A stretch of DNA of 37,393 nucleotides from the UHGV virus genome UHGV-0149281; one strand, 5' to 3'. The translations under genes were made by a program, and so were the position numbers. Shown here piece after piece: positions 50-10,905 of this stretch (the first letter of the stretch is position 1; each line of letters opens with the position of its first letter). The DNA is from a virus. Under the pieces are notes generated by a model. The model made no database searches and had not been told where the DNA came from. It was given only the letters and a program-made list of their open reading frames with translations.

Positions 50-334
50 TTATTCATTGCAGATATTCACCTTTATCGCGAACACCTTTACCGGTTTATC
101 ACCGAAGTGCGGATGTGTGATTGTCTTGATTTCATATCCGTCATACGGGACGTCAATTCTGCGGCTGGAATCGTCGCGCTTCGGATATCCCTTTGTGATG
201 ATCAGGCGGTCATGCTTACGGTTAACGAGGCGCTTTTTCCAGTAGTCATTACATAGGCGATACTCTTCCGTTTTCTCGCCCCGCTTCATCTGGTCGAAGT
301 ATTCGCCGTTCACTGCCAGTTGCAGATTAGCCAT
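50..334 (-). CDS. hypothetical protein, possibly ASCH/PUA-like fold
   Basis: 94-aa ORF; N-terminal region (FDQMKRGEKTEEYR) resembles ASCH-domain proteins from memory; overlaps upstream gene by 8 nt, suggesting an operon. Confidence 0.5.
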   Translation of the reverse strand: MANLQLAVNGEYFDQMKRGEKTEEYRLCNDYWKKRLVNRKHDRLIITKGYPKRDDSSRRIDVPYDGYEIKTITHPHFGDKPVKVFAIKVNICNE

Positions 335-1124
335 TGTCAGCCTCCTGCTGCGGTGCTGCTGGTGCGGCGGCGAGCATTTTCGAGTAGCAATGCACTGTAT
401 TCAGCCAGAACCCAACCACCGATTGTCCAGCACGCAACATATCTTTTGTTGGGTCAATCGGAACAAGTTTCCATCCATCCGGAATCACCGGAGAGTTGCC
501 AGGCTTCACATATCCACTGTGTGCGTCGGCATCGTATTCAAGAATGTCCGGCTCCTCTGACAATTCACCAATCAAATGGCGCATGCGGTCAGATTCGTAG
601 CGAACGCGGTCAGGATACTCGGAACGCTCGATTGTGATGCCTTCCCATGGGTGCTGGCCTTTTCGATGCAGCATTACGGTCCAGTTTGTTTTGCCGTTCG
701 TTTCAGGCATTGATCCGTACCAGACTGTTAGTTCTGGCTTGCCATCGGCACCCTGAAGCATGGCGGCGCGATAGGCGTTCCAGCCAACAGCTTTTCCGTG
801 TTCAAACGCGCTGTCAAAGTCATCATCCATTTCCATCGCAGCGGGCACAGATACCGGCGCTGGCGTGGCAGAGCGATACAGAAGAACATCACCCATCTCT
901 GCTCTGGACGCAGGCCATACGTCTGCATCAGAGCCAGATTTGAGATAATCAAGATTGGACTGGTCGATTACGCACACAGCCTCCGCTTCGAGCGATGCCA
1001 GCGCGATACGCAGGGCAGCCAGCGTATTACTGTCGTCTTCATCCAGGCCGAACGGGATTTCATCGCGGGTGGCTTCCATGTCGGCAATTTTCTGCTGTAG
1101 CCATTGTTTGGTAAGTGTGCTCAT
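327..1124 (-). CDS. hypothetical early-left (pL operon) protein, 265 aa
   Basis: Long ORF, acidic; ATGA overlap with the upstream gene (1121-1124), co-directional with the erf operon. Confidence 0.6.
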   Translation of the reverse strand: MSTLTKQWLQQKIADMEATRDEIPFGLDEDDSNTLAALRIALASLEAEAVCVIDQSNLDYLKSGSDADVWPASRAEMGDVLLYRSATPAPVSVPAAMEMDDDFDSAFEHGKAVGWNAYRAAMLQGADGKPELTVWYGSMPETNGKTNWTVMLHRKGQHPWEGITIERSEYPDRVRYESDRMRHLIGELSEEPDILEYDADAHSGYVKPGNSPVIPDGWKLVPIDPTKDMLRAGQSVVGFWLNTVHCYSKMLAAAPAAPQQEADNG

Positions 1125-1910
1125 GATGCCTCTCCTTTACCGGCTGCGGCGCGGTCGATTCGTTCAATTTCGGCCAGAATAAGTGCGCCAGCTTTCACAA
1201 GGTCACGACGCGGATTTGTCGGCTTCCACCATTCTGGTGTCCACGGCCAGCCAAATGGAATGCGGTTAAATGGATGGATGGCATTCAGTACGTAGCATGA
1301 GGATGCCCACAGTAACTGCGATTTGCTGTACTGGTCATCATGCTCAGGCGTCCATCCCTCAGCTGATTGATGGCGTTGACGCTCTGCAATTACTGACTGA
1401 ACGGCATTGGATAGCGATTTCACACCCTGCGCACGCACTTCAGCCAGGAAAGCGTCGGTGGCTGGGGTTTTGTTATCTGACTCCAGCCACTGGTTGTAGT
1501 AATAATCGAACATGCCAGTAGGATAACCACATCCGCCGTGCACGTGGTCTTTCATAGCAGAACCACACATGCAGTAGTCATTGTCAGTATTACTAATGAT
1601 GTCGATAAGTTGCTGTGTCCGTTGCTTCAACATCGCATTCTCCGCCGCCAGCGCCGAAAACTTCTCGTGTGCCAACTTAACAGCTGCATCAGCCTGCTTA
1701 ATTGACTCAGTCGCTTTCTGGTGGTCTTCGGCCAGCCCTGCTAAATCAGCCTCCAGTTCGGCTAGGCGTTCATTTAATGCATCTCGTTCATCCAGTAGAG
1801 CCAGCACAACCTGAGGTGTGACTTTCATACGAAATGCCAGCAATTTTTGAGGTGTTGCTACTGTTTCAATTGCTACTGCTGCCTCACGCAGTACCTGATA
1901 GTCAATCTTG
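1121..1910 (-). CDS. hypothetical protein with N-terminal coiled coil and Cys/His-rich C-terminal region
   Basis: ORF open from 1936; likely GTG start at 1910 preceded by AAGGAGG; heptad-like N-terminal region; CMCGS..HVHGGCG motif. Confidence 0.55.
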
Positions 1911-1911
1911 C

Positions 1912-2112
1912 TCACTGGTTGCCTCCTTTGCGCCACATCGCATTCAGATATTTGTTGTCATTAACAGAACCGAAACTCTTTCTCTTAAGCAATTCCTCTC
2001 TCGATGGCATTGGCTTTACGCGTTGGCGAATAATCATTTCTGCCGGAAGAATGCCGGGATTGTATGCAAGTCCTCTCATGGTAAATTCCTCAGTCATTAC
2101 TGATAGCGCCAT
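1912..2112 (-). CDS. small hypothetical protein (66 aa)
   Basis: ORF overlapping the 3' end of the upstream gene by 23 nt; no strong RBS seen. Confidence 0.3.
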
Positions 2113-2386
2113 AGCGTGAGCGGTAATTACGCAGGCGCGGGTCGATATATTCAGGGAATTTGTCTATTGTCGCTTTTCGCAACGGTCGCATTGCTGTTTC
2201 GTTTGTTCGGTCCCTCTCATCTTTTAACGCGAGCTGTATATCGCGTCGGTACATCCGTTCTGCTTTTGTTTCTGGTGGCAGAGCAAGAAACGCGTCGAAA
2301 ATGTTTTTGATATTTTCCAGCACCTCCGACTTGGAGCTACCGGAGCAGTTGCGCGCGTCGTCCGCACCATACAGAGGCGCTGGCAT
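2090..2386 (-). CDS. small early protein, possible Abc2-like anti-RecBCD protein
   Basis: 98-aa ORF immediately distal to erf in the pL operon, the size and position of P22 abc2; assignment is by synteny, not sequence. Confidence 0.55.
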
Positions 2387-2409
2387 AATGGAATCCTTAT
2401 GTTGCTACT

Positions 2410-2793
2410 TTAGAAGGGAATTGAATCGTCGTATTCAGGATGATTTTGATGATTGCTACTTTGCTGCTGTTGGCTGTTTCCTGAGGTTGCAAATCCAATC
2501 TTTGCATTCAGTAATTCAAGAGTGATTGATTGACCATTTTGCCCCTGATAAACATCAACCCTGATGTTTTCTCCGGTAATTTCTACAATGCCACCTTCAA
2601 CAAGAACACTACGGTAGTAATCCGCTTGCGCTCCCGGCTTGGCAAATACAACGGCGCTGTAGTTTGTCCATTCTTTCTTTTTTGTCTGGCGATCGTAATA
2701 CTGAACGCCAGCACGGATGTTGAATCCGATATTTTCCCCGGCCTGAAACTCTCTTGCGGGCTTGTTTAGTCTTACAGTAATCGAATGTGCCAT
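2410..2793 (-). CDS. SSB-like protein with acidic C-terminal tail
   Basis: Start ATG at 2793 overlaps the erf stop (TAATG); C-terminus ...HPEYDDSIPF resembles the SSB DDDIPF tail; preceded by a Gln/Ser-rich linker. Confidence 0.65.
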   Translation of the reverse strand: MAHSITVRLNKPAREFQAGENIGFNIRAGVQYYDRQTKKKEWTNYSAVVFAKPGAQADYYRSVLVEGGIVEITGENIRVDVYQGQNGQSITLELLNAKIGFATSGNSQQQQSSNHQNHPEYDDSIPF

Positions 2794-3398
2794 TAAGCAG
2801 CCGCTCCTTCTAATTCGTCTCGTCTGATGTTGTAAACGTCCTGCGCTTTGTGCTGCTCCGGTGTGCCTTCGAGCATCTTCCACGCTTTGGCGAACGCCTG
2901 TTTAAGCTCTTCTACGGTGTTTTTCTGCATTGCTGCGTCAGTGAATGCTTTTAGAACCTGTTCAGGTGTAGGTGATGGTTTTGATTGCTTTGCTGCTGCG
3001 TTCTGCTGATGTTTATGCTCGTCTGTATCTGCATCTTTCGCATCATCAATGCCGAACAAACCATTGAGGCAATACTTGCGCGCATAAGAACTTGTAGCTC
3101 CAGTAACTTGTGCAGAATCCATTCCTTTCTTGCTTTCTTCCTCTCGTGCAAGAGCGGTTGCCGTATGACTGTTTTCGCCATCGGTAATAGTTGCCGTAGC
3201 TTTCACGTAATACCGATCACCAATCAACACAACTTCATCGCTGATTGATAAAAACAGGCCATTCAGTAACGGCTTAACGCCTTCAAGAATGTCTTCGCAG
3301 CTTCTGTATTTATATTTGCCGAATGAGTTGTACTGATTCTTTGGCGCGTTCAGATTCTCCTGAATAGCTGCCAGTCTTGCGTAAAATTCTTTGCTCAT
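2793..3398 (-). CDS. erf: Erf-family single-strand annealing recombinase
   Basis: MSKEFYARLA...NAPKNQYNSFGKYKYRSCEDILEGVKPLL matches remembered P22 Erf nearly residue for residue over the N-terminal domain. Confidence 0.9.
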   Translation of the reverse strand: MSKEFYARLAAIQENLNAPKNQYNSFGKYKYRSCEDILEGVKPLLNGLFLSISDEVVLIGDRYYVKATATITDGENSHTATALAREEESKKGMDSAQVTGATSSYARKYCLNGLFGIDDAKDADTDEHKHQQNAAAKQSKPSPTPEQVLKAFTDAAMQKNTVEELKQAFAKAWKMLEGTPEQHKAQDVYNIRRDELEGAAA

Positions 3399-3499
3399 AT
3401 GATTGTTCTCAGAATGGACACGGCCCAAGGAAATAACGCTGATTTAATACTTCGACTCGTGACAAATTAAGGCATACCCGCATTCCTTCGCGGTCGCCA

Positions 3500-3658
3500 T
3501 TATGGCGATACCAGAGAGCTTTCTGCGTGTACATGCGTCTCTGTAACTTGCTCTCCTTCACTGTGGTTGCAAGTGACATGAATATCTCCTTCGTTACCGA
3601 TTAAATCTTTCATCTGACGAATGAATTCTTCGTCTGACCAGTTATCTGTAAAACTCAT
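3500..3658 (-). CDS. small early protein (kil/arf position)
   Basis: 52-aa ORF from ATG 3658, overlapping the cIII stop by ATGA; position between cIII and erf. Confidence 0.4.
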   Translation of the reverse strand: MSFTDNWSDEEFIRQMKDLIGNEGDIHVTCNHSEGEQVTETHVHAESSLVSP

Positions 3659-3825
3659 GGGCGGCCTTGTTGTTTCAAAATATCCCAAAGCTTTTCGAGC
3701 AAGCTTTTCATTCTTGGTTGTTTAAAGTCTGCTCCGGTTAAAATATTTTTTCGTGAATGCTGTACCGATAAAATCGGGTTGAAAGGGCGAACCGATGCCG
3801 CCCCTGCAATAGCGAACTGTTGCAT
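3655..3825 (-). CDS. cIII: cIII-like protein (protease inhibitor that stabilises cII)
   Basis: 56 aa; MQQFAIAG...SLLEKLWDILKQQGRP parallels lambda CIII (MQYAIAG...); RBS AGGAG 6 nt upstream of the ATG. Confidence 0.8.
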   Translation of the reverse strand: MQQFAIAGAASVRPFNPILSVQHSRKNILTGADFKQPRMKSLLEKLWDILKQQGRP

Positions 3826-3888
3826 AGGATGCTCCTTCTGTTTTATTGCATAACGAAAACGCCTCGAATGAAGCGTTATTGGTATGCA

Positions 3889-3916
3889 TATAAAAAGGCC
3901 CTCACACTGGAGGGCA
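3889..3916 (-). terminator. rho-independent terminator within the pL operon (tL1-like)
   Basis: Minus-strand RNA GCCCUC-CAGUGU-GAGGGC followed by a U-run. Confidence 0.55.
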
Positions 3917-4010
3917 AAGAAGATTTCCAATAATCAGAACAAGTCGGCTCCTGTTTAGTTACGAGCGACATTGCTCCGTGTATTCACTCGTTGGAATGAA
4001 TACACAGTGC

Positions 4011-4199
4011 TTATTCGTCATGCATTTCAGGTAATTCTTCGTATTCGACGCCCCATACGAGTTTACACCAACTAACTCGCTCATATCTTTTACAGAAATC
4101 AGACCACATAACTTGTGTTCCATCATGGTTTGTTATTACTTCTGTAATATCACCAACACTAACAAAACTGGTATTAGAAGCGGTTATTTTTACTTTCAT
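4011..4199 (-). CDS. hypothetical small protein (62 aa), AT-rich
   Basis: ORF with TAATG overlap to the upstream gene; low GC. Confidence 0.5.
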   Translation of the reverse strand: MKVKITASNTSFVSVGDITEVITNHDGTQVMWSDFCKRYERVSWCKLVWGVEYEELPEMHDE

Positions 4200-4495
4200 T
4201 ACTTATCCCCAAGAGCTTTTCTTATTGCTGCGAGACCTTTATTAACAGCTCCATACCATTCTGGATATGTTGTCGTTGTTCTATTTTTGGTTTGCTTAAG
4301 TAATAACTGAAGTGCTTCGAGAAGGTCAGGTGCTGCCGCTATTAGATTGGCATCTTCAATGCATTGAACTTCCTCACAGATTGCAATATACGAACGCCAG
4401 CCTGCGCCATTTTCAAGTGAGTCTGCCTGGATGATTTTAATCTCATCCCCATCCATCATTATTTCCCACTTACCTTCAGTACCTTTAAATTCCAT
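4199..4495 (-). CDS. hypothetical protein (98 aa) with LIAAAPDLLEAL motif
   Basis: ORF in the pL operon; the motif is recurrent in enterobacterial prophage early proteins as I remember them. Confidence 0.55.
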   Translation of the reverse strand: MEFKGTEGKWEIMMDGDEIKIIQADSLENGAGWRSYIAICEEVQCIEDANLIAAAPDLLEALQLLLKQTKNRTTTTYPEWYGAVNKGLAAIRKALGDK

Positions 4496-4541
4496 GTTAG
4501 CCTCTGTTGTTTATGCCAAAAATAAAGGCCGACTATGCGGC

Positions 4542-5012
4542 CTAGTAGAATACCCAATTTTCTGTTTCTTGGTTGTGTCCAAAGTTATATTCAATATCTG
4601 GTGTTGATGTATCAATATTCTTCATCCCATCAACAAGAGTTGATACAACAGCCAAATCTTGTTTGATTCTCATTAAATGGTATTTCTTCCGGCGCAATAA
4701 ACTTTCAATGGCAAGTTTCTTCGTTGGGAATGCAAAAGATCTTTCTGCATTTTTTGCTACTTTCTTAATTGCATATCTATTTCTCTTTTGTTTCCATTCC
4801 TGTAACCACTGATTTGGTGCTGGTTTAAAATTAACAATCCAATGCGCAGGAACCAACCATGCATAATGCTCTGTCTGATGAAAAGCTATATATTGAAGTG
4901 CGAATATTTTGATTCCATCTTCTTCAACTGTCGCCTGGAATCTCCAGAAAACAGGCATTCCATCATGTTCAGTTTCTGATTCAGGAAAAGGTACGCTCCA
5001 TGATTTTGTCAT
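4542..5012 (-). CDS. hypothetical protein (156 aa), AT-rich, directly downstream of N
   Basis: ORF in markedly AT-rich DNA; sits where lambda/P22 carry ral/sieB/gene 17; no recognisable motif. Confidence 0.55.
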   Translation of the reverse strand: MTKSWSVPFPESETEHDGMPVFWRFQATVEEDGIKIFALQYIAFHQTEHYAWLVPAHWIVNFKPAPNQWLQEWKQKRNRYAIKKVAKNAERSFAFPTKKLAIESLLRRKKYHLMRIKQDLAVVSTLVDGMKNIDTSTPDIEYNFGHNQETENWVFY

Positions 5013-5020
5013 ATCTCACC

Positions 5021-5320
5021 TCAAATAAGTGGCTTGCTGCCTAATTTCATTTTCTGGCGACCAACACAAGTCACACCCATTTCACTGCGTGGCTTGCGGT
5101 AGTAAATACGGTTCTGTTTACGCTCGACTTCATCTGCCTTCTTGCAGAGAAGGCTTCCGAGTGATGCTGCTTTGTCTGCTCTGACGCAACCAGAGAGCTT
5201 TAGCGCAATTTTTCGCGCCAGTCGCTGTTCTTCCATTGCCTGCTCACGTTGAGCCTGTCTGCGTGCTCTGCGGCGATTTCTGGCGTTATCGTCAGCCAGA
5301 TATGTAATGACTACTGTCAT
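5021..5320 (-). CDS. N: N-like transcription antiterminator
   Basis: N-terminal arginine-rich motif (NARNRRRARRQAQREQ); C-terminus RKPRSEMGVTCVGRQKMKLGSKPLI parallels lambda N; GGAGG RBS; nutL immediately upstream. Confidence 0.85.
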   Translation of the reverse strand: MTVVITYLADDNARNRRRARRQAQREQAMEEQRLARKIALKLSGCVRADKAASLGSLLCKKADEVERKQNRIYYRKPRSEMGVTCVGRQKMKLGSKPLI

Positions 5321-5426
5321 GTTGACCTCCGATGATTGACTTTGGCGGTGACGCGCCGGGTGCTTATCTTCCGGTTGCCGTCGTGCAGCTGCACTTCACG
5401 TCACCCCAAAGCCAACTACTCTTTGG

Positions 5427-5469
5427 TTCCCGCATTTCGGCGGGACAATCCCATCAATGTTAAAGAGCC
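5427..5469 (-). promoter_or_regulatory. nutL (boxA + boxB)
   Basis: Minus-strand boxA GCTCTTTAAC followed 12 nt later by the boxB hairpin UCCCGC-CGAAAU-GCGGGA, identical to the boxB at nutR. Confidence 0.75.
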
Positions 5470-5516
5470 TGCCAATCTGTTCCGTTTGGCTACCAGCGTC
5501 CTGCTGATGGCTAAAG

Positions 5517-5556
5517 AATACTGTAGGTATTTTATTGTGTAAATACCCAAGGTATT
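5517..5556 (-). promoter_or_regulatory. oL operators / pL promoter region
   Basis: Two 15-bp palindromes AATACTGTAGGTATT and AATACCCAAGGTATT (consensus AATAC-N5-GTATT), the same consensus as at oR. Confidence 0.65.
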
Positions 5557-5688
5557 TATTTTTGGTGAAATAATGATAAGCAAATGAATACAAAGGATAT
5601 TTATTTTTTTCGGTGTCTGCTTGTTCAGTGCTTTTTATGCGGGATATGTGAAGTGGATCCCGATAGCTATTGCTGCCGGGATTATAGG

Positions 5689-6057
5689 TTAGTCAGCGAA
5701 GGTTAAGACGAGAATTACCTTAATGATGTCTGCTACAACAGACACGGCCATAGATAAACCAAAGACGATCCAAGCCACAGTGATGTCTTCACTACCATCG
5801 TATAGAGTTCCGTAATCACTGGTGTAAGGCGTAAATGTCGCGCCTTGATACAATAGGTATAAGCTTGATCCATAGAGGATAAATGCAGATATCCCTTGTA
5901 TTGCTATGACCACTAGAATCATGAAACGAGCTGATCTATGCGCCCAAGCCTGGCTTATTTTTTCTGATAGAGATTTCGCAATAAAAGCATGCGCTAAGCC
6001 GTAAATTGTCGAGATTGCCAACATCCCAAAAAAGCTTGCTATAGCGGTTCCAACCAT
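5689..6057 (-). CDS. small polytopic membrane protein downstream of cI (rex-like position)
   Basis: ORF with several hydrophobic helices; ATG at 6057 (alternative TTG at 6078 overlapping the cI stop); same strand as cI. Confidence 0.65.
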   Translation of the reverse strand: MVGTAIASFFGMLAISTIYGLAHAFIAKSLSEKISQAWAHRSARFMILVVIAIQGISAFILYGSSLYLLYQGATFTPYTSDYGTLYDGSEDITVAWIVFGLSMAVSVVADIIKVILVLTFAD

Positions 6058-6074
6058 AATCGCCCCTTGCGTGA

Positions 6075-6791
6075 TCAAACCAGCCTTAGTTTTGTCTCAA
6101 TTGCAACGCCTATAATCTTGCAGTTTCCATTGATTGGCACGAGAGGCCATGCAGGATTAAGTCCCTTGAGGTATTTATTTCCGCCGTCGATTATCAGCTT
6201 CTTGAATGTTGCTTCGTTAGAGTCAGAAAGTTTTGCTATGACCAAGCTGCCGTTGATCGCCTCCCTTCCGGTATCGAAAAGAACGAATGTTCCCTCTGGA
6301 ATGCTTAACCCAACCGGTGCCGTCATTGAATCACCTTCCACTTTAAGCCAGAACGCATTACCTTGAATATGCGCGTCAGACTCAAGCCAAACATCTATGT
6401 CTTTAATGGTGTATGGTTCGCATGCTTCACACCACGAGCCAGCCTGGATACTGCTTAACACCGGATACCTCTTTCCTGCTCTGTATTCCCCTGCATACCT
6501 TACGTTGGCATCGCTCTTAAGGCTTTCTGCCTGTTCTGCAACCTTGGCAGCAATTGACTGGCTAAAATCAGCAATTGAGACTTGCAACAAACGTGCAAAA
6601 CCAGATGCGACCTCAACGTTTAGCGCGTTTCTGCCATTAAGATAATGCCCTACCGCTCCTTGGGTGATACCCAGTTCATCAGCGATTGAGTATTGGGTTA
6701 TTCCCAATTCTTTCTTTTTTGACTCATACAAAGCCTTAAGCCGCTTAGCGTCTTCGAGCTGTTCTGTCGTCAGTGATTTTTTATTTTCCAT
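6075..6791 (-). CDS. cI: CI-type prophage repressor (HTH + LexA/S24 peptidase-like domain)
   Basis: 238 aa; N-terminal HTH (QYSIADELGITQGAVGHYLNG); C-terminal domain has the S24 Ser/Lys-type motifs (GDSM...K); divergent from cro. Confidence 0.9.
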   Translation of the reverse strand: MENKKSLTTEQLEDAKRLKALYESKKKELGITQYSIADELGITQGAVGHYLNGRNALNVEVASGFARLLQVSIADFSQSIAAKVAEQAESLKSDANVRYAGEYRAGKRYPVLSSIQAGSWCEACEPYTIKDIDVWLESDAHIQGNAFWLKVEGDSMTAPVGLSIPEGTFVLFDTGREAINGSLVIAKLSDSNEATFKKLIIDGGNKYLKGLNPAWPLVPINGNCKIIGVAIETKLRLV

Positions 6792-6826
6792 AGCTTAATT
6801 CTAGTAGCTAAGGTACTTAAACTAAA

Positions 6827-6866
6827 AATACCCTGAGTATTGATTGCTTTGAATACCTGTAGTATT
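6827..6866. promoter_or_regulatory. oR operators with divergent pR/pRM
   Basis: Palindromes AATACCCTGAGTATT (6827-6841) and AATACCTGTAGTATT (6852-6866) between cI and cro. Confidence 0.65.
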
Positions 6867-6897
6867 CTTTGTTCATGGTTAATAACGGAGAGTGCAT

Positions 6898-7092
6898 ATG
6901 ATTCGAATGACACTTGCCGATTACGCCAAAATCCATGGACAGGCTAAAGCAGCCAGTGACTTTGGTGTAATCCAGTGCGCTATCAGTAAGGCCATTCTGG
7001 CAGGCCGTAACATTATGGTTACGGTAAAGCCTGATGGCAGTGTGATTGGAGAGGAAGTTCGTCCTTTCCCAAGCAACAAGAAAAACAAATAG
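6898..7092 (+). CDS. cro: Cro repressor
   Basis: [34 protein letters not shown]....[16 protein letters not shown] parallels lambda Cro; GGAG RBS. Confidence 0.9.
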
Positions 7093-7098
7093 TAACAC

Positions 7099-7143
7099 CG
7101 CTCTTTAACAGTCATGGTCCTCATTCCCGCCGAAATGCGGGAA
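7099..7143 (+). promoter_or_regulatory. nutR (boxA + boxB)
   Basis: boxA CGCTCTTTAACA followed by the boxB hairpin TTCCCGC-CGAAAT-GCGGGAA. Confidence 0.8.
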
Positions 7144-7200
7144 TACAACGCGCATAAGTTGATGCGCATAACTTCTTATTAGTTAAGGAAATACTTACAT

Positions 7201-7479
7201 ATGCAACTTACAAGTACTCGCAAGAAAGCGAATGCAATTACAAGCAACATCCTGAATCGAATTGCTGTACGTGGTCAGCGAAAGGTTGCCGACGCGTTAG
7301 GGATTAATGAATCGCAAATTTCGCGATGGAAAGACAGCTTTATCCCAAAGATGGCCATGCTTCTGGCTGTTCTTGAATGGGGAGTTGTTGATGATGAGAT
7401 GGCGAGACTTGCTCAGCAGGTGGCATCGATTCTCACAAAAGAAAAACGCCCAGCTGTTGGTAGCAGTCTGGACGCTTAA
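7201..7479 (+). CDS. cII: cII transcriptional activator
   Basis: ...SQISRWK..FIPKMAMLLAVLEWGVVDDEMARLAQQVASILT matches lambda CII closely. Confidence 0.9.
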   Translation: MQLTSTRKKANAITSNILNRIAVRGQRKVADALGINESQISRWKDSFIPKMAMLLAVLEWGVVDDEMARLAQQVASILTKEKRPAVGSSLDA

Positions 7480-7513
7480 GCACACTGTGTTACGCCAAGT
7501 AACAGGAGTAATT

Positions 7514-7918
7514 ATGCCAGGACAAACCAAGCAAGTAAACACCGGCATAAAGGCCGGTGACAAGTTCGAAACCGTATATCCATTTATCTTCGTATGCACA
7601 GATTATCAGTCTTATGACGGCAACGTGCATACCGATGAGCGCTGGATTGGCGGTTGTCACAAAAATTATGAGCCAGCCGATTGTGGTTATGGTGATCAGT
7701 GTTTTTACACCGCTGATGCTGAAGGAAAGAGAATTCTTGAGGTTCTGGCAGTGGTGGAAATGCCAGGCAACTGGCAGCGCAGAATCATTTATTCGTGCCA
7801 CCTCATAGAGCCTGAAGGCAAGGAGAGGAAAGGAAGGAAGGCTTACACAGTCACCGAATCAAGGTTTTTAAAAATGTCTACTGGTTACTTCGCTGATTAC
7901 GAAGTAGAGGAGGCTTAA
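7514..7918 (+). CDS. hypothetical Cys-containing protein (134 aa) inserted between cII and O
   Basis: ATG 7514 with AGGAG RBS; in frame with a longer ORF overlapping cII that was rejected; no recognisable motif. Confidence 0.6.
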
Positions 7919-8064
7919 TGACAAAACCACTCAGTCCTTACCAGGACAAAATTCACAAACACATACTACGTGATCGCTTCCTGTCCAGCTTCAAGCAGCC
8001 TGGTCGATTCCGGGCTGAGTTGGAAAAAGTGAAGCTGATGCAGAAGGAGAAAGGTCATGAGTAA
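7918..8064 (+). CDS. small basic hypothetical protein (48 aa)
   Basis: ATG overlaps the upstream stop (TAATG) with GGAGG RBS; its stop overlaps the O start. Confidence 0.4.
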
Positions 8065-8917
8065 TCTTGCAACCGTAACACATTTAAGGCCTTCACAACG
8101 GCCTGTGGAGCGTCGTGTGGCAGAAGTTGAAGATGGTTATACCCGTCTTGCAAATGCCCTGTATGAAGAGCTTATCGGCGCAGATTTAACGAAAAATCAG
8201 AGCAAGGTTGCCCACGCCATATGCCGTAAAACATACGGCTACGGTAAAAAGATGGATCGCATCTCTGATAGTCAGTTAGCTCAAATTACCAGGCTGCCAA
8301 GACAGAAGGTAAACAAGGCCAAGAATGAGCTTATCGCGATGAAGGTTATCCTTCGCGAAGGCCAGCAAATCGGTCCTAACAAGAACATCGAAGAATGGCA
8401 AATCGAAGGGTGTCACTACTCTGGTGATAATGTCACTGCATTGGTGACAAAAAGTGTCACCAAAACGGTGACAGCGCTGTCACCAAAACAGGGACACACA
8501 AAAGAAACTATTACAAAAGAAAAAAGAAATAATAAAAACACTATGTCCGAAAGTGTTCGGACGGAGTGTGAAAAATCACATGACCGTCACGAAGAAACCG
8601 ACAAGGCATTCGAGGAAATATTCTGGTGTGCAGGCATGCGGAAATCCGGGAAGAAAAACGCGGCTTCGGCATTCAGAACACAGTTCAGGGAATGGCGTAA
8701 AACTACAAGGGGTACGGCAAGCGAGTTTGCCACGATGCTGGCAGAAGACATCGCATGCAGGAATGGTAAGCAGTTCGGATTCGACAGGTTGTTACCATCG
8801 AGCTACCTGAACGGTCAACGCTGGAACGACGAGAAGCCAGAAACTATTCAACCACAATCCAAACCATCATCCGCAATCACCGTATCGAAAACTGGCTACG
8901 TGTTTTTCGACAGGTGA
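8057..8917 (+). CDS. O: replication initiator, lambda O-type
   Basis: N-terminal domain ([46 protein letters not shown]) parallels lambda O; iterons lie inside the gene. Confidence 0.85.
8410..8545. repeat. replication origin: four iterons plus AT-rich region inside O
   Basis: Four GTCAC-N6-GGTGA-type repeats at about 20-24 bp spacing (8411-8495), then an A-rich stretch (8496-8545), mirroring lambda ori architecture. Confidence 0.75.
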
Positions 8918-8920
8918 ACC

Positions 8921-9028
8921 ATGAAATCAAAAATCAAATCGCTACTGGTCGCTGGTTATAACCACGGCTGGTTAAGTATTTCGTTTGTCGATTTCTGGTT
9001 TAAAAATCTCAATCTGAGGGAATCATGA
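8921..9028 (+). CDS. small hypothetical ORF (35 aa)
   Basis: Stop overlaps the primase-helicase start (ATGA). Confidence 0.25.
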   Translation: MKSKIKSLLVAGYNHGWLSISFVDFWFKNLNLRES

Positions 9029-10905
9029 GGCCAAGTGAACTCAGCGACCTGCTTTGGGCGCAGGTTGACAGGGTGGCTCCGCACCTGTTGCCAAACGGCA
9101 AGAAAGAGGGGCATGAGTGGGTTGCCGGTAACGTCAACGGTGACAAGGGAAACAGCCTTAAGGTCAATCTTAGCGGCAAGAAAAAATGGGCTGATTTCGC
9201 TGAGGGAGACGGCGGTGACATGCTTGATTTGTGGATGGCATGTCGTGGAATTAACCTGCATCAGGCTATGCAGGAAGCGAAAGCATTTCTCGGTATCAAG
9301 GATGACGATCACCATTTCGATGCCAAACGTGAGAAGAAATTCTCCAGACCTGATCGCAAGAAAATAGCCCGCTACGTTACCAGAACAGAATCCCATCTTG
9401 AGTACCTGCAATCGCGTGGCATATCGCCAGAAGTCGTAAAGCGCTACGAGGTTGTCAGCGGCAAGGTGTGGAATGGAGAACGAGAACTTGATGCACTGGT
9501 GCTTCCGTACAAACGCGATGGTGAGTTGTTGCAGGTCAAGCGAATCAGCACTGAGCGCCCGGACGGGAAGAAAGTCATTATGGCAGAAGGTGATTGTGAA
9601 CCTTGTCTGTTCGGATGGCAGGCTCTGGACGCTGGCGTGAGGGCGGTTGTGCTTTGCGAAGGCGAAATTGATTGTATGAGCTATGCGCAATACGGCATCT
9701 CGGCGTTATCCGTGCCGTTTGGTGGAGGAAAAGGCGCTAAGCAACAGTGGATTGAGTTTGAGTATCACAACCTCGACAGGTTTGAGGAAATATTCATCTC
9801 GATGGACGTTGATGATGTTGGTCGTGAAGCCGCAAGGGAAATCGCAAGCCGACTCGGTGAACATCGTTGCCGTCTTGTTACTCTGCCGTACAAAGACATC
9901 AACGAATGCCTGATGAACGGTGTTACCGAGGATGAAATCTGGCAGTACATCGGCACGGCATCCTACTTCGACCCTGAAGAACTCTACAGCGCGCGAGAGT
10001 TTTACCAGGACACTATCAACGCTTTCTACGGCAAGCAGCAGTATCTGTTTAATCCACCGTGGGAATCTCTGGCATATAAATTCCAGTTCCGTGAGGCAGA
10101 GTTGACGCTGGTCAATGGTGTGAACGGTCACGGAAAAACGGAGGTTGTCGGGCATATGGCACTTGAGGCAATGCGTCAGGGTGTGAAGACGTGCATCGCG
10201 TCACTTGAGCTGAAGCCTGGTATTCTCCTTAAGCGCCTTACCCGTCAGGCGACGTGCTGCAAGATTCCGCCAGTGCTGGAAATTGACTCTGCATTTAAAT
10301 TTTATGACGAAAGACTTTGGGTGTTTGGCCTGACCGGAACGGCGAAAGCCGACAGGCTGATCGAAATATTCGACTACGCTCGCCGCCGATACGGGATCCA
10401 GTTATTCATCATCGACAGCCTGATGAAATGTGGCATAGGCGACGATGACTATAACGGGCAGAAGGCGTTTGTTGACTCGATTTGCGACTTCAAAAACAAA
10501 ACAAACTCCCACGTCATTCTCGTTACTCACTCGCGAAAAGGAGACAGCGAAGAAAAACCAACCGGGAAAATGGACGTAAAAGGCTCTGGAGCGATAACAG
10601 ACCTGACAGACAACCTTTTCATCATCTGGCGTAACAAGGCTCGCGAGAGAGCGTTACAGAGAGTTCAGAGTGGTGAAAAGATGTCAGAGAAGGACGAACA
10701 GCTACTGGCATCTCCGGCATCTGTTTTGATGCTTGAAAAACAACGTAACGGCGAAGGTTGGGAAGGTGGCGTCCCTTTGTTCCTTGACGAGCAATCGCAC
10801 CAGTTCCTGCAACTTGAATCAGGATCGCCTTATAGCTACATCGCCAATATGCCGAAATCGGAATATGACGAGGCGTGGCGACAGGAAAACGTGACGGAGT
10901 ATTAA
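9025..10905 (+). CDS. bifunctional primase-helicase (Toprim + DnaB-like ATPase, T7 gp4-like)
   Basis: Toprim signature VVLCEGEIDCMSY...ISMDVDDVGREAA...LPYKDINECLMNG aligns with T7 gp4; Walker A GVNGHGKT and helicase motifs in the C-terminal half. Confidence 0.85.
   Translation: MRPSELSDLLWAQVDRVAPHLLPNGKKEGHEWVAGNVNGDKGNSLKVNLSGKKKWADFAEGDGGDMLDLWMACRGINLHQAMQEAKAFLGIKDDDHHFDAKREKKFSRPDRKKIARYVTRTESHLEYLQSRGISPEVVKRYEVVSGKVWNGERELDALVLPYKRDGELLQVKRISTERPDGKKVIMAEGDCEPCLFGWQALDAGVRAVVLCEGEIDCMSYAQYGISALSVPFGGGKGAKQQWIEFEYHNLDRFEEIFISMDVDDVGREAAREIASRLGEHRCRLVTLPYKDINECLMNGVTEDEIWQYIGTASYFDPEELYSAREFYQDTINAFYGKQQYLFNPPWESLAYKFQFREAELTLVNGVNGHGKTEVVGHMALEAMRQGVKTCIASLELKPGILLKRLTRQATCCKIPPVLEIDSAFKFYDERLWVFGLTGTAKADRLIEIFDYARRRYGIQLFIIDSLMKCGIGDDDYNGQKAFVDSICDFKNKTNSHVILVTHSRKGDSEEKPTGKMDVKGSGAITDLTDNLFIIWRNKARERALQRVQSGEKMSEKDEQLLASPASVLMLEKQRNGEGWEGGVPLFLDEQSHQFLQLESGSPYSYIANMPKSEYDEAWRQENVTEY

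Follow-up and report, generated by a model that had tools for sequence, protein, structure and literature searches.

Three small genes between N and cIII of a lambdoid prophage may be exchangeable single-gene modules of a variable accessory slot

The virus genome UHGV-0149281 was analysed as a single window of 37,393 nucleotides (nt), to which all coordinates refer unless another locus is named. It is a lambdoid prophage whose early-left (pL) operon lies on the minus strand. This report concerns the 1002-bp interval at positions 4011-5012, between the antiterminator gene N and cIII. The original prediction placed three open reading frames (ORFs) here, and they are indeed present, all on the minus strand: ORF156 (4542-5012; 156 amino acids (aa)), the first gene after N and located before the first terminator-like hairpin; ORF98 (4199-4495; 98 aa), a member of the P22 orf78 family (PF27050); and ORF62 (4011-4199; 62 aa; phrog_10407), whose start overlaps the ORF98 stop. 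N itself (5021-5320, minus strand, 99 aa) was identified with phrog_271 (E=6.8e-36) and with the Pfam model N_peptide (E=0.0012, below the family cut-off). cIII (3655-3825, minus strand) encodes 56 aa from an internal ATG at 3825, and corresponds to residues 36-91 of a longer ORF that matches phrog_550 'CIII' (E=4e-22). Two further minus-strand features were found by folding and terminator scans: a terminator-like hairpin between ORF156 and ORF98 (4516-4543), which is a putative tL1 analogue, and a structured leader before cIII (3858-4005). The three genes had been described as an AT-rich cassette. We find that they are AT-rich but not that they form a cassette. On balance, the interval is probably part of a hypervariable N-cIII accessory slot in which modules of one gene each, connected by short conserved linkers, can be exchanged independently.

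Sliding-window calculation of the guanine plus cytosine (GC) content confirmed that the interval is more AT-rich than the flanking genes: values are 0.361 for ORF156, 0.407 for ORF98 and 0.354 for ORF62, compared with 0.497 for N and 0.439 for cIII. GC content at third codon positions (GC3) is 0.25-0.30 in the three ORFs. The interval is the lowest-GC kilobase of the window (0.378 against a mean of 0.476, standard deviation 0.031), a value matched by only 0.14% of sliding windows. AT-rich DNA can generate long ORFs by composition alone, and several antisense-strand ORFs are also present, as would be expected if the interval were non-functional filler or decaying DNA. This explanation is hardly credible, since it is already contradicted by the selection data. 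Comparison of ORF156 with an 83%-identical homologue gives a proportion of nonsynonymous differences (pN) of 0.10 and of synonymous differences (pS) of 0.80; the ratio of nonsynonymous to synonymous rates (omega) is about 0.05 for ORF156 against 933W, and for ORF62 it is 0.28 with a Salmonella homologue and 0.09 with a metagenomic one. Conservation extends over the full length of the proteins across genera of the Enterobacterales and in distant phages, and the genes carry good Shine-Dalgarno sequences. Alignments of 20 and 30 homologues show extensive conservation; the ORF62 set of nine includes two frameshift fusions. The sequence comparisons thus indicate that all three are genuine protein genes under purifying selection, with the figures given here for ORF156 and ORF62.

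The two fusions are 79-aa database 'proteins' (P0165 and P0173) that join the ORF62 N-terminus to another frame, that of a 55-aa ORF (3959-4126, minus strand) which overlaps the 3' half of ORF62 and crosses the hairpin. This 55-aa ORF is probably not a gene.

The distribution of the genes was determined in 5,426 complete Escherichia coli genomes, using a segment coverage of at least 80%. ORF156 is present in 593 genomes (about 11%), the ORF98-ORF62 pair in 60 and the whole 1002-bp array in 12. About 98% of ORF156 copies occur without ORF98 and ORF62, 80% of the pairs occur without ORF156, and the BLAST break-points coincide with gene borders. The term 'cassette' must therefore be abandoned: the genes assort independently, both in these genomes and among 80 IMG/VR loci carrying ORF156. 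It could be argued that the three ORFs are inherited together and, with their translation coupled, work as one system, such as an anti-defence or takeover module of several components. They are adjacent, lie on the same strand and are all AT-rich; the full array recurs near-identically in the 12 genomes (among them E7476, O128:H27 90-9281 and E2348/69); and ORF156 is directly upstream in 12 of the 60 genomes with the pair (20% compared with the 11% base rate), although this is a weak enrichment, calculated without phylogenetic correction. Such a system is very improbable, because the co-occurrence data already contradict it. In addition, a 46-nt gap with a terminator-like hairpin separates ORF156 from ORF98, and each of the genes is found alone in unrelated phages.

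The IMG/VR loci show how the slot varies. ORF156 lies behind at least three unrelated N alleles, which it follows by way of one conserved linker, TTATTTGAGGTGAGATATG. The next gene downstream varies: it is ea10/ssb-like, P22 gp17-like or TolA-like, belongs to PF27050, or is cIII itself. In about 60 of the 80 loci the sequence ...ACGAATAAGCACTGTGTATTCATTCCAACGAGTGAATACAC... is found immediately 3' of the ORF156 stop codon. This ACGAATAAGCACTGTGTATTCATTCCAACGAGTGAATACAC junction is the sequence that follows ORF62 in the window, including the shared ACGAATAA. The distance from N to cIII ranges from 677 to 3,102 bp across 61 loci. The other two genes are equally found in different company: for example, in L004 and mEp043 ORF98 is preceded by Ral and overlaps a different downstream ORF, of 53 aa, and ORF62 occurs behind a 44-aa remnant that retains the PF27050 C-terminus only (L005).

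The left arm of the window is of the HK97 type, with the order N, gp45 homologue, structured terminator region, cIII, kil-position ORF, erf and abc2. Most relatives lack a block that the window has after the ORF156 stop codon and before the conserved hairpin junction; it consists of a terminator-linker, the PF27050 gene and the overlapping ORF62. The simplest reading of this sequence comparison is that the block was inserted into an HK97-type array; equally, it may have been deleted in the majority. As in other lambdoid phages, near-identical short sequences flank each gene whatever its neighbours: TTATTTGAGGTGAGATATG before ORF156, a 41-bp terminator-linker before PF27050 genes, and the ACGAATAAGCACTGTGTATTCA... 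junction. Such 'linker' sequences at module boundaries have reportedly been described in comparative genomics of HK97, HK022 and HK620. The arrangement is ordinary lambdoid mosaicism. It differs in that one of the linkers is also a predicted intrinsic terminator, so that genes located after it would fall into a different temporal class; the inserted terminator-linker would then be an example of module exchange moving genes between temporal classes.

This hairpin (4516-4543) and its T-run lie in the 46-nt spacer between ORF156 and ORF98. It has the structure AGGCCG-CATAGT-CGGCCT followed by the tail TTATTTTTGG, that is, a 6-bp stem (five of its pairs G-C) closed by a loop of 6 nt and followed, on the transcribed strand, by a U-run, and it is predicted to be an intrinsic terminator. 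It is present in the centroid structure. A 41-bp segment (approximately 4503-4543) that includes the hairpin, the T-run and the ORF98 leader stands alone beside other genes in many E. coli genomes, and from its sequence context seems to be a portable linker or 5' leader of PF27050-family genes. Divergent PF27050-like genes were also observed behind the same terminator-linker at L006 2975-3226 (83 aa, MEAAPDLLEAL) and at L099 4517-4813 (98 aa, AANELLQAF ... AQAAMSKA), and the linker therefore seems to travel with the family. In L099 the hairpin is intact even though the adjoining ORF156 homologue is saturated at synonymous sites, which suggests either selection on the hairpin or its recent exchange.

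The setting in a pL operon was also correctly predicted. A pL-like sigma-70 promoter (TTTACA-17-TATTCT; 5515-5543, minus strand) was identified by consensus scan amid operator-like inverted repeats; we infer its role as pL from its sequence and from its location just downstream of cI and a 129-aa ORF. It is followed by nutL, comprising an exact boxA, GCTCTTTAACA (5458-5468, minus strand), and a boxB-like hairpin, UCCCGC-CGAAAU-GCGGGA (5428-5445, minus strand). A second exact boxA, GCTCTTTAACA (7100-7110, plus strand), is found after cro and corresponds to nutR. The two boxA copies, which are of the rrn type, lie on either side of the immunity region and are oriented as nutR and nutL should be. 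The cI, Cro, CII, Erf and Abc2 proteins were identified by Pfam.

At the other end of the interval, the leader at 3858-4005 contains a hairpin with a perfect 12-bp stem (3978-4005) and two others of the terminator-like kind (3898-3915 and 3858-3877). The leader is the conserved junction to which ORF156 is directly joined in most related phages. Its fold is far more stable than that of shuffled sequence (z=-5.6). The leader gave no Rfam match, and an Rfam scan of 3300-6200 gave nothing above noise. The site corresponds to the putative terminator annotated after gp45 in HK97.

In lambda, transcripts from pL end at tL1, just past N, until N modifies the polymerase. A consensus scan detected no promoter-like site on the coding strand within 4000-5020; all three genes would therefore probably be silent in the lysogen and be transcribed from pL upon infection or induction. 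As it lies upstream of the first terminator-like hairpin (HK97 is similar, with its annotated terminator after gp45), ORF156 would be made together with N before antitermination and would thus be immediate-early. ORF98 and ORF62, which lie between terminator-like hairpins (4516-4543 on one side and 3898-3915 and 3858-3877 on the other), would need N-modified polymerase and would be delayed-early. Immediate-early expression, originally proposed for all three, is thus possible for ORF156 but not expected for the other two. The same division applies to translational coupling. ORF98 and ORF62 overlap by 1 nt (TAATG), and ORF62 translation is probably coupled to that of ORF98. ORF156, in contrast, is set apart from ORF98 by the 46-nt spacer and its hairpin, and its ATG is 8 nt from the N stop codon with a GGTGAG Shine-Dalgarno sequence between them.

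ORF156 matches phrog_1636 over its full length (E=5.4e-112; residues 1-156 on profile positions 1-156). It is 98.7% identical to HK97 Gp45 (NP_037731), 99.4% identical to L0079 of 933W (AAD25424) and of 933W-type Shiga toxin (Stx) phages, and 100% identical to an unannotated ORF that follows N in H-19B. It occurs in 88 phage records, mostly of Stx-converting phages. In HK97, 933W and H-19B this is clearly the same gene, with an identical length and location (N immediately precedes it, and the first terminator and cIII lie downstream); only the upstream N allele and the downstream block differ. ORF156 is directly downstream of N in HK97, in 933W and in about 70 of the 80 IMG/VR loci. Homologues with 55-85% identity occur in Salmonella, Pectobacterium, Cronobacter, Brenneria and Rosenbergiella. 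An exhaustive profile search of the family retrieved 87 clusters of small proteins, of which about 70 are distant (130-155 aa; PHROGs 13631 and 25384); 40 of the 87 clusters were aligned and scanned, with no credible match to Pfam or to an annotated PHROG. Distant relatives of about 140 aa lie at the head of early operons in unrelated phages. For example, the homologue in Salmonella phage NX263 heads an operon with DNA-binding, MarR-family and sliding-clamp genes, and a homologue in a Vibrio phage is near the start of an early operon. In Pectobacterium odoriferum, a 63%-identical homologue (L088 5001-5477) is not adjacent to an N gene but directly precedes xis and int, at the distal end of the early-left region.

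The ORF156 protein is 18.6 kDa with an isoelectric point (pI) of 9.05 and a very basic central segment (16 K/R in residues 74-118). An AlphaFold2 model built from the family alignment, with a predicted local distance difference test (pLDDT) score of 62.8, combines a sheet of three strands with short helices and one long helix (98-131). Through its basic helix, the protein may act on nucleic acid or on a protein that handles nucleic acid. Some exo-xis genes have been proposed as regulators of phage development, and ORF156, instead of acting against the host, could likewise be a nucleic-acid-binding regulator that modulates antitermination, replication, early transcription or the choice between lysis and lysogeny. 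This would fit the basic segment and predicted long helix, the tight position beside N in most lambdoid carriers, with a Shine-Dalgarno sequence abutting the N stop codon, and the DNA-binding protein and MarR-family regulator in the NX263 operon. It is nevertheless unlikely. ORF156 is paired with at least three unrelated N alleles, and lambda, P22 and many other lambdoid phages do without it, which places it outside the core switch. Moreover, no helix-turn-helix (HTH) or other DNA-binding domain was detected, and the Pectobacterium homologue lies beside xis-int. Tentatively, and with somewhat greater probability, ORF156 could be a counter-defence or host-takeover protein not described before, produced in the immediate-early phase along with N, ahead of antitermination.

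ORF98 belongs to phrog_1273 (E=5e-32). Assignment to PF27050, 'Phage_P22_Y8K6', is precomputed on nearly all of its homologues, including those that are 97-100% identical (among them P0003, the representative of the exact-sequence cluster); a direct Pfam scan gave no match, but the Pfam copy that was scanned does not contain the PF27050 model. The family name presumably refers to the 8.6-kDa P22 protein orf78. ORF98 is 39% identical to P22 orf78 over the C-terminal approximately 46 residues, which cover both family motifs (blastp E=7e-5 in a set of 13 sequences), 42% identical to BTP1 gp34 (blastp E=2e-20) and 97% identical to mEp043_046; BTP1 gp34, ST104 orf18 and mEp043_046 are family members. 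The motif LIAAAPDLLEAL, which had been singled out from the sequence of the 98-aa protein, occupies residues 51-62 and is nearly invariant in the family. P22 orf78 shares with ORF98 the AAPD/ELLEAL helix, the C-terminal AAIxKALGxE, the size class and the place in the pL operon between N/ral and cIII; its N-terminal domain and middle segment differ. Since the order in P22 is ral-orf78-orf87-17-c3, ORF98 is both a sequence and a positional homologue of orf78. This bears out the proposal that the interval corresponds to the slot in which lambda and P22 carry ral and gene 17.

The ORF98 protein is acidic (pI 4.7) and is modelled by AlphaFold2 from the family alignment as a three-strand meander followed by a confident helical hairpin (pLDDT 73.5). 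Between the EDAxLIAAAPDLLEALQ helix and the C-terminal AAIxKALGxE helix, the middle segment of PF27050 proteins is hypervariable and forms the tip of the helical hairpin in the model. Among 95 close relatives (from homologues P0001-P0120) there are 22 unalignable types of middle segment. One type of N-terminal domain is combined with at least 17 of them, and the middle type found in the window is combined with six N-terminal clusters representing at least three clearly distinct domain types. Either the conserved motifs would serve as recombination linkers or the tip would be a swappable specificity element. In the latter case, exchanging the tip might redirect one shared inhibitor scaffold to new targets.

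ORF62 is a small acidic protein (pI 4.8) that matches PHROG 10407 over its whole length (E=6.2e-46; residues 1-62 on profile positions 1-62). The domain is found as the C-terminal half of RB49ORF076c and in homologues from other Krischvirus, Salmonella 9NA/SP069 and Aeromonas phages, with 57-61% identity. Residues 3-56 align with the C-terminal half of RB49 ORF076c and its homologues (PHROGs 10407 and 16117), with the core KITKSNTSFVxVG...WSxFCxRYExxSW...WGVEYEE. RB49, a virulent myovirus, carries the domain behind an unrelated N-terminus of 60 residues, and the gene belongs to a cluster of small ORFs close to gene 38; ORF62, by contrast, is free-standing and probably coupled to a PF27050 gene. 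The RB49 protein was also considered as a 'Rosetta stone' fusion of an ORF98-like and an ORF62-like protein; this was rejected, as neither PF27050 motif could be recognised by eye in its N-terminus.

The overlap of ORF98 and ORF62 might enforce stoichiometric co-expression of a two-gene pair, for example of a toxin-antitoxin-like or inhibitor-chaperone type. A stop/start overlap behind the PF27050 gene is also found in Salmonella prophages: the 1-nt overlap is TAATG in E. coli and TGATG in Salmonella P22-like prophages, and is kept at about 44% identity in the PF27050 gene and 74% in ORF62. ORF62 always lies behind a PF27050-type C-terminus (...KALGDK/EE), even where the upstream gene is reduced to 44 aa. 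However, PF27050 genes more often precede other small ORFs (the 53-aa ORF, BTP1 gp33, P22 orf87), and in other phages ORF62 homologues are solitary or fused to unrelated N-termini. The pair also lacks the properties of a type II toxin-antitoxin system: partners swap or are absent, and neither protein has a toxin or antitoxin domain. We regard a dedicated pair as rather improbable, and the three genes as better treated as separate modules and as three independent experimental targets.

Clearly, the genes themselves are not new. They have been sequenced and catalogued in HK97, 933W, H-19B and P22 and in Pfam/PHROGs. The exact ORF156, ORF98 and ORF62 proteins are present in at least 1,000, 775 and 571 public contigs, respectively, always as 'hypothetical protein', which is how the three families have been annotated since the HK97, 933W and P22 genome papers. 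In the searches made here, PHROGs matches were confined to families of 'unknown function'. No study of any of the proteins or their families was found in the literature, no anti-defence activity is reported for any of the three in the searchable literature, and the three sequences are not present as text in the supplements of an accessory-gene screen (PMC12373910). A published DefenseFinder run on phi367 and phi296, which carry ORF156, reported only a methyltransferase, Ral and Gam (PMC12502783), and so gives no indication that its database includes ORF156. The only PADLOC match of ORF156 is a spurious one to Cas1_II (E=0.0097, 13 bits), and the PADLOC-DB defence models gave none for ORF98 or ORF62. 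Profile, sequence and structure searches likewise revealed no housekeeping function, which would have spoken against the role in host takeover or anti-defence suggested in the original prediction.

This suggestion is reasonable by association with the other occupants of the slot. In other prophages it contains Ral (antirestriction), the DNA-modification enzyme Nmad5 (PMC11846954), a P22 gp17-like protein or a pentapeptide-repeat protein, and Abc2 can also be counted among the operon neighbours with known counter-defence or exclusion roles. The gp17-like protein is annotated as 'allows growth on Fels-2 lysogen', and one prophage (L005) has a true gp17 homologue (86% identical) in the slot. The regions L100 2980-3669 and L101 3176-3634, both from P22-like prophages of Salmonella, encode a pentapeptide-repeat protein of 229 or 152 aa between Ral/N and the PF27050-ORF62 pair. 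Because pentapeptide-repeat proteins are DNA mimics, this gene is another candidate anti-nuclease gene in the slot.

The three genes resemble the N-cIII genes of lambda and P22 (ral, sieB/esc, gene 17 and lambda ea10) in occupying the same slot, in being non-essential and mosaic, and in the logic of early expression from pL with tL terminators; in sister prophages, Ral and gp17-like genes lie in the slot beside ORF98 or ORF62. Their products, on the other hand, are unlike Ral, SieB/Esc, gp17 and Ea10 in sequence. None matches the Ral family (PF11058) in Pfam, and blastp comparison with P22 Ral is insignificant; blastp with P22 gp17 gives E>8. There is no Pfam or NCBIfam match to SieB/Esc, and, unlike P22 sieB/esc, which is on the opposite strand with its own promoter, the three genes are co-oriented with pL and have no promoter-like site on their strand.

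Taken together, the three proteins are small, non-enzymatic-looking and dispensable, and would most likely bind a macromolecule of the host or of a competitor phage early in infection, although this is weakly inferred. The acidic ORF98 and ORF62 proteins may be protein-binding inhibitors. Such binding would serve counter-defence, counter-exclusion or host takeover. By analogy with the slot neighbours, and from the early-operon position of the ORF156 homologues in NX263 and the Vibrio phage, we consider a role of this kind a serious possibility, though short of probable. Since the families of ORF62 and of the N-terminal half of ORF98 are also found in virulent phages, a general role at the infection stage is suggested rather than a role in lysogeny.

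The genes might instead be morons expressed from the prophage that protect the lysogen by defence or superinfection exclusion, such as sieB, rexAB and HK97 gp15. They are AT-rich and horizontally shuffled, they are very common in E. coli prophages, and the slot also contains exclusion-related genes. However, they are co-oriented with pL and lie downstream of the operators and nutL; there is no promoter-like site on their strand in 4000-5020, no PADLOC match and no evident membrane segment; and homologues occur in strictly virulent phages. Prophage-expressed defence is thus improbable, and less likely than either counter-defence or takeover or a regulatory role of ORF156.

A number of points also weigh against the counter-defence or takeover role and the expression scheme that accompanies it. 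Guilt by association is weak, as ssb/ea10-like and TolA-like genes with no assigned role share the slot. Scans of the three proteins against Pfam (E<=0.1), NCBIfam and PADLOC gave no credible match, nor did single-sequence and profile searches of the PDB. A Foldseek search against BFVD returned only unnamed phage proteins (E>=5e-3) with no significant fold match, and the confidence of the ORF156 model is low. The Pectobacterium homologue adjoining xis-int is far from the operon start, so that the N-proximal position is not universal. Termination at 4516-4543 is only a prediction, with a stem of 6 bp (about -8.5 kcal/mol), and locally the sequence folds no better than when it is shuffled (z=0.05). 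Finally, the promoter scan is crude, and a weak promoter active in the lysogen may have escaped it.

Of the three, ORF156 most merits experimental work: its conservation is high, it is probably expressed along with N, and it is present both in the clinically important Stx phages and in the tractable phage HK97. If it does neutralise a common E. coli defence, this would have a bearing on the spread of Stx phages between strains.

Several other features of the window may be of use in its annotation. Beyond cIII, the operon continues with a kil-position ORF, erf and then abc2. Upstream of pL, cI (6075-6791) contains the Pfam domains HTH_3 and Peptidase_S24. Directly downstream of it is the 129-aa ORF (5689-6078, minus strand), which has no Pfam match and encodes a hydrophobic, membrane-like protein. 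It occupies what we take to be the site of rexAB in lambda and of BstA in BTP1, and is a candidate prophage-expressed exclusion or defence gene. On the plus strand, a 203-aa ORF without a Pfam match (7307-7918) overlaps cII at its 3' part, in a different frame, and reaches the small ORF that precedes the replication gene.

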